A stretch of DNA of 64,000 bases. It comes from Escherichia phage N2. Made by a program: the position numbers and the translations under genes. Positions 19,922 through 25,614 of the stretch are shown here, in pieces (the first letter of the stretch is position 1; each line of letters opens with the position of its first letter). The notes beneath the pieces are model-generated. The model saw only the letters and a program-made list of their open reading frames with translations. It did no database searches and was not told where the DNA came from. The DNA is taken from sequence record ON645936.1, one strand, 5' to 3'.

Positions 19922-20641
19922 TTAGGATTCTTCTAAATGTCTTTTCTGAAAAGTTGATACCATACTACGATACGGTTCATTTGGATATCCGTGTTTTATA
20001 GCTTCCTTTGTAAATTTTCTCCATCCATATTTAGTTTCTTTCCAAAGCTCGAATAATTCATCTTCATACTGCCATATAGTTAAATGAGAACGCTTTGCAG
20101 CTTTAATTCCATTAATATGCTTTTCTTTTACTGCAGGATTGCTTAGTTTCTTTTTAATAATATTACTAACTTTTCTAACAAAAACTGGGTCCTTATATCG
20201 TTGCGAAGTTTTTATTGAAGTGTTTAATTTAGCTTCCGGCGTGGATGTAACCTCTTTCATCTTTTTCTTCATATGCTGTATATGATTAGGATTTTTCCAT
20301 AAATTTATAGAATGCTTTTTGCATTTTATCCTAGTTTCATCTGCAACCTTTCCTCCTTCACCCCCGTATGACAGGTTAACACAGTTTTTTCCATATTTCA
20401 ATTTACCTGCCATGATATATAATATTTCAGCTTGTACCATTTTATCATAATTATCAAAAACTTCTAAAACCGTTTTTGATAATATGTGGTCATTTGACAC
20501 TTTTACACGTTCTATATAATTTCCACTACCAACATACGAATCATTGATGTTATTAGTTATATGTCGACCATAATAGTATTTCTTAATACCTGTCTTTAAA
20601 TTTAATATTTCAGTTTTATAGATAGTAAAATATTTTTTCAT
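19922..20641 (-). CDS. GIY-YIG homing endonuclease (Seg-like)
   Basis: 239 aa; YFTIYKTEIL...YYGRH...YVGSG GIY-YIG-like N-terminus and basic C-terminus; 4-nt overlap with the upstream ATPase. Confidence 0.6.
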   Translation of the reverse strand: MKKYFTIYKTEILNLKTGIKKYYYGRHITNNINDSYVGSGNYIERVKVSNDHILSKTVLEVFDNYDKMVQAEILYIMAGKLKYGKNCVNLSYGGEGGKVADETRIKCKKHSINLWKNPNHIQHMKKKMKEVTSTPEAKLNTSIKTSQRYKDPVFVRKVSNIIKKKLSNPAVKEKHINGIKAAKRSHLTIWQYEDELFELWKETKYGWRKFTKEAIKHGYPNEPYRSMVSTFQKRHLEES

Positions 20642-21618
20642 TTTAATAATACCGTTTCAGCAATTTCTTCCCAATGATTTTTGTCGGTCATAATAAAGTC
20701 AGCAAGATAAAGAGCAGTACGCAGTGAAACATTGCGTAAACGATTAACATTGACTTTCATCCATGATAATGCTTTATAAGTTTCTTCATCAGAAAGACCG
20801 CGCTTTTGCATCATGTCGGTTGAAAGAATAACATCTTCAACCCTGACCATAATTTCTTCATTAGTGTGAACACCCAAATCCAAATAAACTGAGCGGGACA
20901 CTAATGCCTGTAAATGTGGAGCAAGTTTAGTACCACGGTCTAATTCGCGGTCAATGTCAACGTTTGTGATAAAAACAATCGTTCCTTTAAATTCAAACTC
21001 ACGCTCAATGCCTTTTTCTTCTAAGTAAGAAGATGCAGTGCTCCAGCAGACTTTACGGGTTTCTCCGGTGTCCAGAGCGGCTTTTAGAAGATTAAGAATG
21101 TCCATATCAGAGAAAACATCCACATCATCAATCAAAAGGACAGAATTCTCTTCACGATTATTCCAAAGCTGTTCATAAAGACCAATACCAGAGATTTTAC
21201 CATTAATGCTTTTATATTCAATGTATCCAATATCATTTGCTTTATTTAAAGCTTTATCTAAAGAATACGTTTTACCAATACCTGCTGCGCCAGAGATAAT
21301 TAATGAACGAATATTTCCATTAATAATACCGTTCGTCATCATTCCCATAACATTAAATCTTTTATTAATGCGGGTTTTCATATCTTCATATGATTCTTTA
21401 ACTTCTTCAACTTTTACACCATCATATGAAATATCTGATTTGTAAACCCAAACACCGCGACGTTTACCGTCAATTTCAACAAAAACTTTACCATCTCCTT
21501 GTGCATCTACCGGAGCATTATCTGGGAACCATTCGCCTAAGAGCTCAAAAGTTCCAGAGATTTCTTTACCAAAGTAGATACCCTTATTGATAGTTACAGT
21601 TTTCATTTTATTCTCCAA
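20638..21618 (-). CDS. AAA+/P-loop ATPase
   Basis: 326 aa; Walker A GAAGIGKT, Walker B VLLIDDVD, sensor-like TIVFITN. Confidence 0.6.
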   Translation of the reverse strand: MENKMKTVTINKGIYFGKEISGTFELLGEWFPDNAPVDAQGDGKVFVEIDGKRRGVWVYKSDISYDGVKVEEVKESYEDMKTRINKRFNVMGMMTNGIINGNIRSLIISGAAGIGKTYSLDKALNKANDIGYIEYKSINGKISGIGLYEQLWNNREENSVLLIDDVDVFSDMDILNLLKAALDTGETRKVCWSTASSYLEEKGIEREFEFKGTIVFITNVDIDRELDRGTKLAPHLQALVSRSVYLDLGVHTNEEIMVRVEDVILSTDMMQKRGLSDEETYKALSWMKVNVNRLRNVSLRTALYLADFIMTDKNHWEEIAETVLLK

Positions 21619-21642
21619 ATCTGTATCAGTAGTTGATAGTTG

Positions 21643-21673
21643 TATAGTACCATAAAGCTTTATGCTTGTAAAC
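21643..21673 (-). promoter_or_regulatory. T4-type early promoter
   Basis: GTTTAC-N18-TACTATA on minus strand, upstream of ATPase gene. Confidence 0.5.
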
Positions 21674-21702
21674 TGTTTTGTGAAAAAATTTTTGAAATAA
21701 AA

Positions 21703-21724
21703 AGGGGACCTTTAGGGCCCCTTT
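21703..21724 (-). terminator. GC stem-loop followed by U-tract
   Basis: GGGG...CCCC hairpin then T-run on minus strand after the 21733 gene. Confidence 0.4.
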
Positions 21725-21732
21725 GTGTTGAT

Positions 21733-22218
21733 TTATTCCATTTCTACTATATGCATGTTCTTTTTGCTATCAAAATATATGTTTTTAACTATTAACTCAG
21801 AATTAATTGGCAGTAAAAACTCTCTTTCATAATCTACCATACAAAGATTATCATAAAGCTTGTTAAGCTTATCATCGTCAGTTTGGCCAGATTCTTCAAT
21901 TGCGATTAAATTTTCTAAAATGTCAATCATGGCAGTCGAATAGTCGAAAACGTTTGCATTTTTTAACACTACTAAAACATTAGTCATATAGCGTTCTGCC
22001 GCAAACGTTTCAGCTATATGAGACTCACTGCTAAAGGAAGTTATTCTTTTAAATTTGATTCTCCTATTAACTTCAAACTTATAAGATAGCACTTCCTCTA
22101 TTGTAAGTCCTCTAAAAAGTATGTCTTTAATCTCAAGTTTGTCTTTAATGTAATCATTAACACGCTTATGATTAAAATCATTAATTTTGTTGCCAAGGCA
22201 TTGCATTAAAATATGCAT
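21733..22218 (-). CDS. candidate ADP-ribosyltransferase (R-S-E class)
   Basis: 161 aa; ordered motifs F-R-G (res ~35), S-F-S-S (~61), E-R-E-F-L-L-P (~131) match the ART signature aromatic-R / S-T-S / ExE-hydrophobic-LLP. Confidence 0.45.
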   Translation of the reverse strand: MHILMQCLGNKINDFNHKRVNDYIKDKLEIKDILFRGLTIEEVLSYKFEVNRRIKFKRITSFSSESHIAETFAAERYMTNVLVVLKNANVFDYSTAMIDILENLIAIEESGQTDDDKLNKLYDNLCMVDYEREFLLPINSELIVKNIYFDSKKNMHIVEME

Positions 22219-22264
22219 TGTATTCTCCTCAATTTTTAAAGAGCAATTAATTAACTACACATAT

Positions 22265-22294
22265 ATTATAATATGCTTTGTGATAGAAGTAAAC
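22265..22294 (-). promoter_or_regulatory. T4-type early promoter (GTTTAC-N18-TATAAT)
   Basis: canonical -35/-10 on minus strand upstream of 21733-22218. Confidence 0.55.
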
Positions 22295-22323
22295 AACTTT
22301 GTGACGTCATTTTAAACAAAAAA

Positions 22324-22341
22324 AGGGAGCCCGAAGGCTCC
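22324..22341 (-). terminator. rho-independent terminator (GGGAGCC-UUCG-GGCUCCC + U-tract)
   Basis: 7-bp GC stem, UUCG loop, followed by Ts on minus strand; directly after the 22345 stop. Confidence 0.6.
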
Positions 22342-22344
22342 CTA

Positions 22345-23358
22345 TCATTTATAATAACTTCGGTAGTTTTCAAGATAAACCCTCTCAAGGAAGTCATCCC
22401 AAAAACCCATGTCTACTTTTTGCTGCATACCGTTCTTAGAAGCTTCAATGGATGCTGCTTCTACTTGATCGACCACATCTTCCAAAAACTCTTGAACAGT
22501 TTTAAATGGGTGTTTACCCAGCTTCACGTCGAGAATAAATGGAGCGTCTTGAAGTGGATAAACCAAGTCACCAGTTTTGTAAATTTCCAATAGTTGGAGT
22601 CCACCACGACAAGCATGACTTAGAGCTTTCCAGTCAATGCCCTCATTCGCTTCAGCCTTACGAGCACGTTCGCCATATTCAGCATCAAGTTTATTCAAAG
22701 ACTGCTTAAGCTCAATAAGAGAAAGTGTTGTCTGATATTTACGACCCAACACGGTATAGAACATTTGCGGGCCTGTTTTCTCATGGTTATGGAATACCCA
22801 TTCACAGAACTCGTTTTCAGGGAGTCTGTGTTTGATATCTTCTACCTTAGTACGACGAAGTCTATCAGGGATTCCTTCTTGATAGTCGACCCACTGGTCA
22901 GGGATTTGATTAACTACTTTCAATACATCACGTAATGCGGCCAAACGAGAACCCTTGACACCGTATTTAGAAGCTTGCTTGCGGACATATCCTAAATAGG
23001 ATTTCATGTTAGTTGTATAAAACCGTGAACGATTGTCTTGGATAAATTTCCATACATCAGGCAAATCAGATTTAACCACTAGTTCAGGCGGAGTGTGAAG
23101 CATATCCAATGCTACAGTTTCACCATCTGCTGCTAATTTAAAGAAATACTTAAGACTGTACAGTTCATGGTCAATATCATCTTTGGTGTTTTTAGATGAT
23201 GTGTTGTTAGTGTTTTTACTCATATGCTCTTTAACATTTCCGATAAGAATATCGCGAGCAGGAGGAACAAAGATTTCTTTAAAATCTACATCAGATTCTG
23301 GAGTAGAAGTTCCATAAAGATGACTACCAAAATAGCTTTTCATTACTGTTTTCATCAT
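22345..23358 (-). CDS. Pol-beta superfamily nucleotidyltransferase (Cid1/PAP/OAS/CD-NTase-like motif)
   Basis: 337 aa; N-terminal FGSHLYGTSTPESDVDF fits hG[GS]-x10-DhD; downstream LDMLH could supply the third acidic residue. Confidence 0.55.
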   Translation of the reverse strand: MMKTVMKSYFGSHLYGTSTPESDVDFKEIFVPPARDILIGNVKEHMSKNTNNTSSKNTKDDIDHELYSLKYFFKLAADGETVALDMLHTPPELVVKSDLPDVWKFIQDNRSRFYTTNMKSYLGYVRKQASKYGVKGSRLAALRDVLKVVNQIPDQWVDYQEGIPDRLRRTKVEDIKHRLPENEFCEWVFHNHEKTGPQMFYTVLGRKYQTTLSLIELKQSLNKLDAEYGERARKAEANEGIDWKALSHACRGGLQLLEIYKTGDLVYPLQDAPFILDVKLGKHPFKTVQEFLEDVVDQVEAASIEASKNGMQQKVDMGFWDDFLERVYLENYRSYYK

Positions 23359-23816
23359 TCAGCCTTATATTCAATAACAGGACATACTTTAGCTTTACGC
23401 GCTTTTAAAAATTCGACGATAATAGATTTCTTGGGTTGAATAGGAGGTAAACCTTTATACGCCCTATCAATATTTTCTACATGTAAAGCATAATCCTTTT
23501 TCCATTTATAATCTTTATATTTTTCATGCAATTGTGCAGGAATAACAAATGAACCGATAATAAGTAAAACAAGCAAAATGGCAAGTATAAATGCTGCTGG
23601 AATAAGAGTCCATAAACTACCAAAAATAAGCCATTTCTGTATGATTTCTGCACAGATGATAGTTAGACCTGCGAGTATAGTACATCCGAAAAAAGAAACG
23701 AAAAATGTAGGAATAACAATAGACCAAAAATACGCGCATAGTGTCTTAGGTCGTTTCCATTCATCATTAAACATTTTGAATAATTTATAGTGCCAAGAGC
23801 TTTCATTAATAATCAT
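23355..23816 (-). CDS. small 2-TM membrane protein, translationally coupled to the nucleotidyltransferase
   Basis: 153 aa; two long hydrophobic helices (res ~27-48, ~57-90); stop overlaps NTase start (ATGA). Confidence 0.5.
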   Translation of the reverse strand: MIINESSWHYKLFKMFNDEWKRPKTLCAYFWSIVIPTFFVSFFGCTILAGLTIICAEIIQKWLIFGSLWTLIPAAFILAILLVLLIIGSFVIPAQLHEKYKDYKWKKDYALHVENIDRAYKGLPPIQPKKSIIVEFLKARKAKVCPVIEYKAE

Positions 23817-23818
23817 AA

Positions 23819-24340
23819 TTATCCTTTCATTGAAGGTGTAACAGTTGTTAAATACTTAATCATAGCTTCAGCTTCTGATTTTGATAATGAAATTTCTCCA
23901 TTGTTTTGACGAATAGAAATAAAATCCGGATGACGGTCACCACCAGCTTTCAAAACACACATATAAGTATCAGTTTCATCTTCAATATTTGAAATGATTG
24001 AAGCAGTTCCACATGAATGTGGTTTTTGATAAATCAATGCAGCTTTTCTTCCACCGTTTGACTGTTCATAAACTTTTAACACATCAAACAAATCACTTCT
24101 TTTATCAATAGCTAAGATGTTGTTTTCATCTTCAATGTTAAATCCTTCGGATACTTCATAAAGTGTCACCCATAAATCGCCTATATCGATAGTAGCATTT
24201 CCTTTTCCACAACTTTCAAGAGCATGACAAATTTTCTTGATTTCGTCATAACTCATTTTAATAATATCATCTCCTTGAATAAGGAAGATGTCATTTTTAA
24301 ATTCAACATGAATTAAACCACTTTCACTTGAAATAAACAT
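23819..24340 (-). CDS. hypothetical protein, paralog of 24347-24904
   Basis: 173 aa; C-terminus SKSEAEAMIKYLTTVTPSM aligns with DEAIALKTYLDSVIPTM of the neighbour. Confidence 0.5.
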   Translation of the reverse strand: MFISSESGLIHVEFKNDIFLIQGDDIIKMSYDEIKKICHALESCGKGNATIDIGDLWVTLYEVSEGFNIEDENNILAIDKRSDLFDVLKVYEQSNGGRKAALIYQKPHSCGTASIISNIEDETDTYMCVLKAGGDRHPDFISIRQNNGEISLSKSEAEAMIKYLTTVTPSMKG

Positions 24341-24346
24341 ATTTCC

Positions 24347-24904
24347 TCACTTTGAAATCATAGTTGGAATGACAGAATCAAGATAAGTCTTTAGCGCAAT
24401 AGCTTCGTCTTTGGTAAATGTGACAATATGTGATCGAAAATCATCAATTTGACGAATAGTTAAGACATCTCCCTCTTCATAACATTTTGATACATTTAAA
24501 AGAGTTTCATCATTCTGATTGCAATCGTTAGTAATAATAGCATTGCAATTTTTGAGCCATTTTAAACTATGTTTTCTTTCATTAGAATAATAAAAATATT
24601 TAATCTTATCTATAAAACTATCCCAATGAATAACTGATAAACACATTGACTCACTTTTAATATTAAATCCTGGGCATGAAGAATAAAAATGAATTTTGTG
24701 CTCATCATTGATGCTTACTATTTTATCAGTATAAGGATATTCAATTTGGATTAAATGAATGATTTCACTAGGCGTAAAATATAGCATATCGTCTTCTTGC
24801 GTCAAACGATACATATTATTTACTTTTTCTATAGCCAATTCACCAAAAAGCGGACTAACTTCTAATACTAATCGTTTCATATTGATTCTCTTCGACTCAC
24901 TCAC
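24347..24904 (-). CDS. hypothetical protein, paralog of 23819-24340
   Basis: 185 aa; GTG start with AAAGGAG upstream. Confidence 0.5.
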   Translation of the reverse strand: MSESKRINMKRLVLEVSPLFGELAIEKVNNMYRLTQEDDMLYFTPSEIIHLIQIEYPYTDKIVSINDEHKIHFYSSCPGFNIKSESMCLSVIHWDSFIDKIKYFYYSNERKHSLKWLKNCNAIITNDCNQNDETLLNVSKCYEEGDVLTIRQIDDFRSHIVTFTKDEAIALKTYLDSVIPTMISK

Positions 24905-25234
24905 AATTACATACTCCTTTGAATAATATCAATAATGTTGTTCACTAGATTATAAGTAAACATTGGGTAATTATATTGAATCATCACATACACAGCAAAC
25001 AAAACTTTCATTCTCTTCTCCTTGGCAGTTGGCAAGATTACTATACCATAACCTTGCCAACTTGTAAACCATTAAATGACGTTTTCAATAAAATTCTGGA
25101 GTTTTGTGTGAGCATCAACCATGATTTTCATTTCTTCCTTTGCGAAAGCTATGCCTCTTTCCCGAGAAGAACACTCATAGTCAGAAACTGCATTAGCATA
25201 TTCTTCAATTAGCTTCATTAAAAACATCTGCTTT

Positions 25235-25429
25235 TCAGTTTTCATTATTCCACCTAATCATTTCAAGATATTGAACTAACTTAGCTTTAGATTTATCCAA
25301 ATCCTTTTTAGCTGCTGCTATACCTTCGTATGAATATCCTTCACAGTGCTCAACTGCTAATTGATATGAATCTATTTCAATATCACGTGCTAATTTAATG
25401 ATTTTTTCAAACTGTTCACGTGTCAGCAT
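25235..25429 (-). CDS. hypothetical protein
   Basis: 64-aa ORF. Confidence 0.4.
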   Translation of the reverse strand: MLTREQFEKIIKLARDIEIDSYQLAVEHCEGYSYEGIAAAKKDLDKSKAKLVQYLEMIRWNNEN

Positions 25430-25431
25430 AC

Positions 25432-25614
25432 TTAAACTCTCGTATTATGATCGATAATTTCATCAAGAAACATATCTAAAGCTTCTAAAGCATTATCAAC
25501 TTTAGCTTCAAATTCTTCAATACTTGATAAGGCAAAGTTAATGCGTTCCTCATCTGCTTTGCGAATTAAAGCTACCAATTCTTTAATTTTATCTGCTTGT
25601 TCGATACTAATCAT
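25432..25614 (-). CDS. hypothetical protein
   Basis: ORF 25432-25650; probable start MISIEQ at 25614. Confidence 0.35.
   Translation of the reverse strand: MISIEQADKIKELVALIRKADEERINFALSSIEEFEAKVDNALEALDMFLDEIIDHNTRV

Follow-up and report, generated by a model that had tools for sequence, protein, structure and literature searches.

Does a nucleotidyltransferase gene whose start codon overlaps the stop codon of a small membrane protein gene betray a phage-borne signalling module, or do the two simply lie side by side in a tightly packed early operon? The question is raised by positions 22345-24904 (minus strand) of a 64,000-nucleotide (nt) stretch of DNA from Escherichia phage N2 (record ON645936.1), the whole of which we call the window. 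The original prediction for this locus described a four-gene cassette in which a nucleotidyltransferase (NTase) of 337 amino acids (aa) is paired with a 153-aa membrane protein behind two paralogous genes, after the fashion of the cyclic oligonucleotide-based antiphage signalling system (CBASS). All of its statements about the sequence itself could be confirmed: the list of open reading frames (ORFs) of the window contains the four minus-strand ORFs (Table 1), a UUCG terminator follows them, the 153-aa protein is hydrophobic, and at 23355-23358 the stop codon of the 153-aa ORF overlaps the first ATG of the 337-aa ORF in the coding-strand sequence ATGA (plus strand, TCAT). As to what the genes are, all four belong to the ordinary, conserved early gene set of T4-like phages; the region consists of known T4-type early genes, and neither the genes nor their assignment to families is new to the public record. 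The NTase, NrdC.11, shows no specific tie to the membrane gene, and the pair is not a CBASS-like immune module. The best explanation, which we hold to be moderately probable, is a single Tequatrovirus early unit in which NrdC.11 acts as an RlaP-type enzyme while its neighbours are independent accessory genes.

The assignment of the 337-aa protein rests on several concordant matches. It shares 95.5% aa identity with T4 NrdC.11 and passes the Pfam model PF10127 (RlaP) over residues 7-136 with a score of 43.9 bits (cut-off 23; E 3e-11), a family carried by all 120 of the listed NrdC.11 homologs; it also matches phrog_388 'nucleotidyltransferase' with an E value of 9e-136. The family is a large one, with 3438 representatives at 50% clustering (E<=1e-3). 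The claim that the protein belongs to the DNA polymerase beta (Pol-beta) superfamily of NTases was well founded. The NTase motif FGSHLYGTSTPESDVDF is found in the protein, and an alignment of 136 diverse full-length homologs shows which residues are kept. The superfamily motif (hG[GS], then DxD and a third Asp) is represented by G11 and S12, both invariant, and by D23, D25 and D63, which are retained in 133-135 of the 136 sequences. A second motif towards the C-terminus, D242-W-K-A-x-S-H248-A-x-R251, is nearly invariant in the same alignment, H248 and R251 within the C-terminal helical domain being invariant or nearly so. The sequence identifies the protein as NrdC.11 and as an RlaP-family member whose catalytic triad is intact.

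The AlphaFold (AF2) model of NrdC.11 (predicted local distance difference test score, pLDDT, 94.3; predicted template modelling score, pTM, 0.85) starts with an NTase domain (residue 1 to ~115), followed by a helical linker and, at 155-209, a beta-rich insert; the C-terminal domain is helical, and a long terminal helix ends the model. Among predicted viral structures, full-length fold relatives are spread over many phages and giant viruses and include the baculovirus protein HE65. Solved structures gave only weak Foldseek matches (E >= 6e-3), namely 3c18, kanamycin nucleotidyltransferase and HalB of the Hailong system; further structural neighbours are lincosamide and aminoglycoside nucleotidyltransferases, MNT/HEPN-type proteins and DrrA. 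The original prediction had named cGAS/DncV, OAS and Cid1 as folds to compare. Neither cGAS, DncV or OAS nor any CD-NTase or CCA-adding enzyme appears in the top structural lists of the Foldseek search against solved structures, and Cid1 is matched at negligible probability only. Sequence searches of the PDB with NrdC.11, with its N-terminal domain and with the 136-sequence profile returned nothing relevant.

These neighbours invite the idea of an anti-defence role or a modifying activity on a substrate other than RNA, with NrdC.11 being for example a Gad2-like inhibitor that targets a host defence complex or an enzyme that nucleotidylylates a small molecule or protein in the manner of kanamycin nucleotidyltransferase. 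The list of antibiotic NTases, MNT/HEPN-type proteins and DrrA would fit, as would the likeness that structure comparison reveals between the C-terminal helical domain and HEPN-like substrate-binding domains, and the fact that nrdC.11 is an early-expressed, non-essential gene in a hyperplastic region. The resemblance to kanamycin nucleotidyltransferase and the MNT-HEPN NTases is however distant: identity amounts to 8-13%, NrdC.11 is larger and belongs to a different Pfam family, and unlike these enzymes it is not connected with antibiotics or with toxin-antitoxin pairs. Membership of PF10127 also speaks against this idea, as does a study that labelled macromolecules with two RlaP members and found RNA as the only substrate. 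We consider a non-RNA substrate unlikely.

That leads to RNA. Orthologs of nrdC.11 were recorded in 2006 as conserved COG3541 nucleotidyltransferases, and a preprint of December 2025 on RlaP assigns T4 NrdC.11 to cluster 5 of PF10127, the viral cluster. According to that preprint the Pseudomonas enzymes PfRlaP and PaRlaP act on any RNA 3'-OH, adding one or two nucleoside monophosphates (NMPs), and favour the broken end of a cleaved-tRNA mimic, the end of the 5' half being preferred to the 3' acceptor-side fragment. In the crystal structure of PfRlaP, the N-terminal NTase and C-terminal helical domains form a cleft and the terminal helix packs onto the NTase domain. NrdC.11 resembles these enzymes in passing the Pfam model and in its Pol-beta carboxylates, and its AF2 model has an N-terminal NTase and a C-terminal helical domain. 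An RNA-tailing enzyme, the last of the alternatives in the original prediction, is now the favoured one. The preprint proposes that RlaP serves as an antidote to RloC and other 'smart' ribotoxins, enzymes that cut and then take out a nucleotide, and a comparative study of jumbo phages predicts likewise for phage RlaPs. The T4 segment from nrdC.11 to mobD.3 can be deleted.

During infection, NrdC.11 would restore the nucleotide excised from the tRNA anticodon loop by RloC-type 'cut-and-excise' anticodon nucleases, after which a T4-type polynucleotide kinase/phosphatase (Pnkp) and RNA ligase could reseal a usable tRNA. Genes for T4-type RNA ligase and Pnkp sit elsewhere in the genome. NrdC.11 would thus be a counter-defence accessory that is dispensable on laboratory hosts. 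The RlaP hypothesis, in which tRNAs are patched after RloC-type cuts and then ligated, lends itself to a direct test in T4 or T6, and the main value of the locus lies in pointing to a predicted role of NrdC.11 in counter-defence that is easy to test.

Genes for tRNAs are carried by T4-like phages, and an enzyme that extends RNA 3' ends could have the more mundane task of maintaining or completing the CCA region of phage or host tRNAs, with no part in anticodon-loop repair. Such a housekeeping role would agree with the acceptance of any RNA 3'-OH by RlaP enzymes and with the situation in Rheinheimera phage Barba31A, which is not T4-like, where the NrdC.11 homolog lies one gene downstream of a CCA-adding tRNA nucleotidyltransferase; this independent context fits a role at RNA 3' ends and counts in favour of the RlaP-type explanation as well. 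We nevertheless regard the housekeeping role as quite improbable, since NrdC.11 has no Pfam match to the CCA-adding family PF01743 (PolyA_pol/CCA), no CCA enzyme is found among the fold matches, the RlaP enzymes prefer the 5'-half end to the acceptor side, and nrdC.11 is dispensable in T4.

Whether NrdC.11 is tied to the membrane protein was addressed with 89 loci that carry NrdC.11 homologs, 11 from annotated phage records and 78 from IMG/VR contigs, the ORFs of which were searched with iterated profiles of each window protein. A membrane homolog abuts nrdC.11, with an overlap of 4 or 1 nt, at 17 loci (Tequatrovirus, Mosigvirus, Gaprivervirus and similar). At 36 loci that include Jiaodavirus, Karamvirus and Acinetobacter phages it lies 0.3-2.6 kb upstream on the same strand, separated from nrdC.11 by one to three unrelated genes that do not encode membrane proteins, and it was not found within 5 kb at another 36, among them RB16, Aeromonas phages and KVP40. 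Close relatives tell the same story. T4 aligns to the window up to 23359 and resumes at 24322, the space between being taken by the homing endonuclease gene mobD, which replaces the membrane and 173-aa genes. In T2 (locus L092, 1243-3682) nrdC.11 is intact while the three upstream genes look decayed: the membrane gene is truncated to 135 aa, mobD.1 shortened to 97 aa and the 173-aa paralog split into ORFs of 63 and 57 aa. On a Tevenvirinae contig (L019, 4201-5004) a MobD homolog (E 4e-138) separates the membrane gene from nrdC.11, and in RB16 (L010, 2487-3020) an HNH endonuclease gene at the same spot overlaps the nrdC.11 start. The number of records in the phage collection also differs, with 1517 for NrdC.11, 830 for the membrane protein and 452 for the 173-aa paralog.

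The ATGA junction itself carries little information. The start of nrdC.11 shares a 4-nt overlap with whatever gene lies upstream at 41 of the 89 loci, and the minus strand of the window contains 14 ATGA junctions between ORFs of at least 60 aa, one of which joins nrdC.10 to a homing-endonuclease-like ORF. Because the membrane gene is elsewhere separated, absent, replaced or decayed, and because ATGA junctions are generic, the adjacency of NTase and membrane genes is a matter of synteny and of the dense packing of T4-type early operons, not a module. The original prediction was to fall if orthologs of these genes were ordinary, separately distributed nrdC.x genes across T4-like phages, and that is the case. 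The gene of the membrane protein and the two y05I-family genes upstream of it are best explained as independent accessory genes that do not share a mechanism with nrdC.11.

The same data bear on a signalling module as a rival explanation, in which the membrane protein would be opened or gated by a nucleotide or oligonucleotide signal from the NTase, in the manner of a CBASS system with a transmembrane effector or of Hailong, and the phage would thereby achieve superinfection exclusion or abortive infection. The likeness to CBASS lies in a Pol-beta-superfamily NTase next to a small membrane protein, with genes that are ATGA-coupled here, abut at 17 loci and share a strand within 5 kb at 53 of the 89; the strongly basic cytoplasmic tail and conserved Cys/His motifs of the membrane protein, together with the structural match to HalB, can also be counted in its favour. 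Yet none of the proteins has a CD-NTase/SMODS match in Pfam at E<=0.1 or a match in PADLOC, cGAS, DncV and OAS are missing from the top structural matches, and no nucleotide-sensing domain was detected on the 153-aa protein, which matches no PDB chain at the sequence level (E<=10). The co-inheritance that characterizes a CBASS effector is contradicted by the split into 17 abutting, 36 separated and 36 absent cases. T4 lacks the membrane gene, T2 has a truncated one, and other genera have one to three unrelated genes or a homing endonuclease in between. This distribution already largely refutes a module, which we consider extremely unlikely.

Hailong in turn consists of the NTase HalB and the membrane ion channel HalA. 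For the 153-aa protein, a HalA-type channel finds no support in the sequence comparison with PDB chains. HalB has 217 residues and aligns to NrdC.11 over the NTase core only (template modelling scores of 0.25 and 0.36), without sequence similarity. The C-terminal tyrosine of HalB reportedly primes DNA synthesis. A conserved tyrosine is lacking at the C-terminus of NrdC.11, where positions 335-337 are gapped in most homologs. Hailong is moreover a bacterial defence locus, whereas nrdC.11 is a phage gene whose pairing with a membrane gene is not conserved. No recurrent membrane partner was seen among nine larger neighbouring ORFs from seven divergent loci, for which a Pfam scan indicated unrelated functions, namely a UvrD helicase, a NUDIX protein, a nucleoside transporter, a primase-helicase and a nicotinate phosphoribosyltransferase (NAPRTase).

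The interpretation of NrdC.11 as an RlaP-type repair enzyme has to face a number of objections. The biochemistry stems from Pseudomonas enzymes that belong to another PF10127 sequence cluster and is known through a preprint, so that the activity of NrdC.11, a member of viral cluster 5, is a predicted one. Its alignment to PF10127 stops short of the C-terminal half of the profile, covering positions 23-143 of 249, and the beta-rich insert at 155-209 is not described for PfRlaP. Another difference from the Pseudomonas RlaPs concerns the gene context: no RNA ligase or Pnkp gene lies beside nrdC.11 in the window, and RNA-repair genes are equally absent from the nine neighbouring ORFs mentioned above. 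Among solved folds HalB comes closest, and not an enzyme of RNA repair, although the PDB set searched contained no RlaP structure. Finally, the 53 loci at which the membrane gene lies within 5 kb upstream on the same strand would be compatible with a looser functional link between the two genes.

The membrane protein deserves attention in its own right. The 153-aa protein matches PHROG 944 (E 1e-49) and has homologs in 830 phage records; it has no match above cut-off in Pfam or NCBIfam. A hydrophobic core of ~70 residues (about 26-96) contains two long segments with Kyte-Doolittle peaks of 2.2 and 3.1 and is flanked by basic residues, and the C-terminal tail is strongly basic and cytoplasmic. 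The hydropathy profile fits the two transmembrane helices that had been proposed, possibly four. An alignment of the family shows motifs that are kept across genera at both cytoplasmic ends, SWH and P..LC.Y at the N-terminus and KA[RK]K.K.CP at the C-terminus. The two conserved Cys residues and one His might form a small metal site. Natural variants offer ready controls for a study of this gene, with T4 lacking it, T2 having decayed upstream genes, and T6 and HY01 carrying the full set.

In most genera a stand-alone ORF of 65-107 aa with a y05I_C domain is found directly upstream of the membrane gene. All in all, an ORF with a y05I or y05I_C domain occupies this position in 41 of 55 occurrences across genera, which makes it a tighter neighbour of the membrane gene than nrdC.11 is. 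It is conceivable that in the lineages with abutting genes (Tequatrovirus, Mosigvirus and Gaprivervirus) the RlaP-type NTase has been recruited as a partner of the Cys/His-motif membrane protein, either as a Hailong-like oligonucleotide-gated switch for superinfection exclusion or as a membrane-tethered NTase, and that the y05I_C and membrane genes separately constitute an undescribed two-gene module. We would give this combined scheme very little credence. Word-indexed homolog searches with the y05I and membrane proteins retrieved close relatives only.

The two genes at the head of the predicted cassette are paralogous, as had been stated. Identity between the 173-aa and 185-aa proteins is 28% (E 2e-8), and each contains the two y05I domains (PF24449 and PF24448): the 185-aa protein scores 133.6 bits (E 4e-39) with T4_y05I_N and 77 bits (E 1e-21) with T4_y05I_C, and the 173-aa protein 108 and 83.6 bits, the respective gathering cut-offs being 24.9 and 27 bits. 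The 185-aa protein is 86% identical to T4 MobD.1. Its real start is probably the internal ATG at 24880, in line with the start in most homologs, and the protein would then have 177 aa (MKRLVLE...). Pfam labels the y05I protein a 'putative transcription factor'; AF2 modelled the 185-aa protein poorly (pLDDT 52.1). Since nearly all of the 452 records with the 173-aa paralog show at least 90% identity, this copy is a duplication confined to Tequatrovirus. In a metagenomic protein of 179 aa (P0291) the N-terminal part comes from the 185-aa paralog and the C-terminal part from the 173-aa one; this chimera implies recombination between the tandem paralogs with deletion of the sequence between them. 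The original prediction had also recognized none of the four proteins as a characterized T4 product. Two of them are in fact T4 products, NrdC.11 and MobD.1; these are annotated ORFs that remain experimentally uncharacterized in T4.

The sequence assigns the window to a Tequatrovirus. The 3.5-kb region is 98.9% identical to Escherichia phages HY01 and PEC04, and hundreds of Tequatroviruses are 92-97% identical to it. The gene order tk, rI.1, rI, rI.-1, mobD.5 to mobD.2, mobD.1, ..., nrdC.11, nrdC.10 is common to the window, T4 and HY01, which bears out the proposed location in the hyperplastic nrdC-rI block. NrdC.11, MobD.1 and MobD.2 are direct orthologs of the T4 proteins, and order, strand and the terminator-promoter element are alike in the two phages. 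T4 differs in having the HNH homing endonuclease gene mobD in place of the membrane gene and the 173-aa paralog, and the window differs from T4 by an additional 161-aa gene between nrdC.11 and nrdC.10. Taken together, the region would form part of the nrdC-rI backbone, which is conserved yet plastic, and would be neither a mobile cassette nor one that is functionally closed.

The boundaries of the transcription unit also require some correction (Table 1). The consensus match at 25068-25040, upstream of mobD.2, is probably the start of the unit, which would extend the proposed four-gene cassette in the upstream direction and take in the 34-aa MobD.2 ortholog. The order of the early unit would then be promoter, mobD.2, mobD.1, the mobD.1 paralog, the membrane gene, nrdC.11 and terminator. 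The terminator, called by a terminator scan, has the structure GGGAGCC-UUCG-GGCUCCC followed by a U-run (minus strand 22343-22324), with a folding energy of -16.7 kcal/mol and a z-score of -2.7. It forms the stem-loop half of a composite terminator-promoter element, and alignment reveals the same element in T4. The promoter-like half is predicted to drive the next, separate unit, a gene for a 161-aa ADP-ribosyltransferase-like protein. An Rfam scan of 21500-25500 produced nothing near gathering scores.

Table 1. Genes and putative signals of the nrdC.11 early unit in the window
Feature	Position	Strand	Basis
Early-type promoter-like site (TTTACA, 17-nt spacer, TATAGT, with TG)	25040..25068	-	Consensus scan, 10/12 matches
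MobD.2 ortholog, 34 aa, small hydrophobic peptide, first ORF of the unit	24907..25011	-	Translation nearly identical to that of T4
MobD.1 ortholog, y05I family, 185 aa from GTG	24347..24904	-	Identity to T4 MobD.1, Pfam
MobD.1 paralog, 173 aa	23819..24340	-	Pfam T4_y05I_N and T4_y05I_C
Membrane protein, 153 aa, PHROG 944	23355..23816	-	Hydropathy, PHROG match
NrdC.11 ortholog, 337 aa, RlaP-family (PF10127) Pol-beta nucleotidyltransferase	22345..23358	-	Identity to T4, Pfam, AF2 model
Intrinsic terminator, C(UUCG)G stem-loop	22324..22343	-	Terminator scan and folding
Promoter-like site directly 3' of the terminator	22265..22293	-	Consensus scan, T4 alignment

The 161-aa gene (21733-22218, minus strand) occupies a place where T4 has nothing. 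The match of its product to PHROG 832 'RNA polymerase ADP-ribosylase' has an E value of 1e-23. ModB-type ADP-ribosyltransferases from other T4-like phages share ~27-32% identity with this product, which contains what by eye look like the R (FRG), S (SFSS) and ExE (EREF) motifs. At an identity of at least 90% the gene is found in ~43 phage records only. It is bracketed by two elements composed of a stem-loop and an early promoter (21644-21721 and 22265-22343), while T4 has a single hybrid of both. This arrangement matches the pattern described for cassette shuffling mediated by promoter early stem-loops (PeSLs; PMC2839356, PMC4122927).

The homing-endonuclease-like ORF that is ATGA-joined to the end of nrdC.10 encodes 239 aa (19922-20641, minus strand; phrog_314, E 1e-30); it is absent from the same spot in T4 and HY01 and present in T6 with 99% identity. 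Homing endonuclease genes recur at the junction immediately upstream of nrdC.11, as seen with mobD in T4 (L001, 10430-11209), on the Tevenvirinae contig and in RB16. A review of 2010 lists the target of MobD as unknown, and the 5' end of nrdC.11 or the junction upstream of it would be a candidate.

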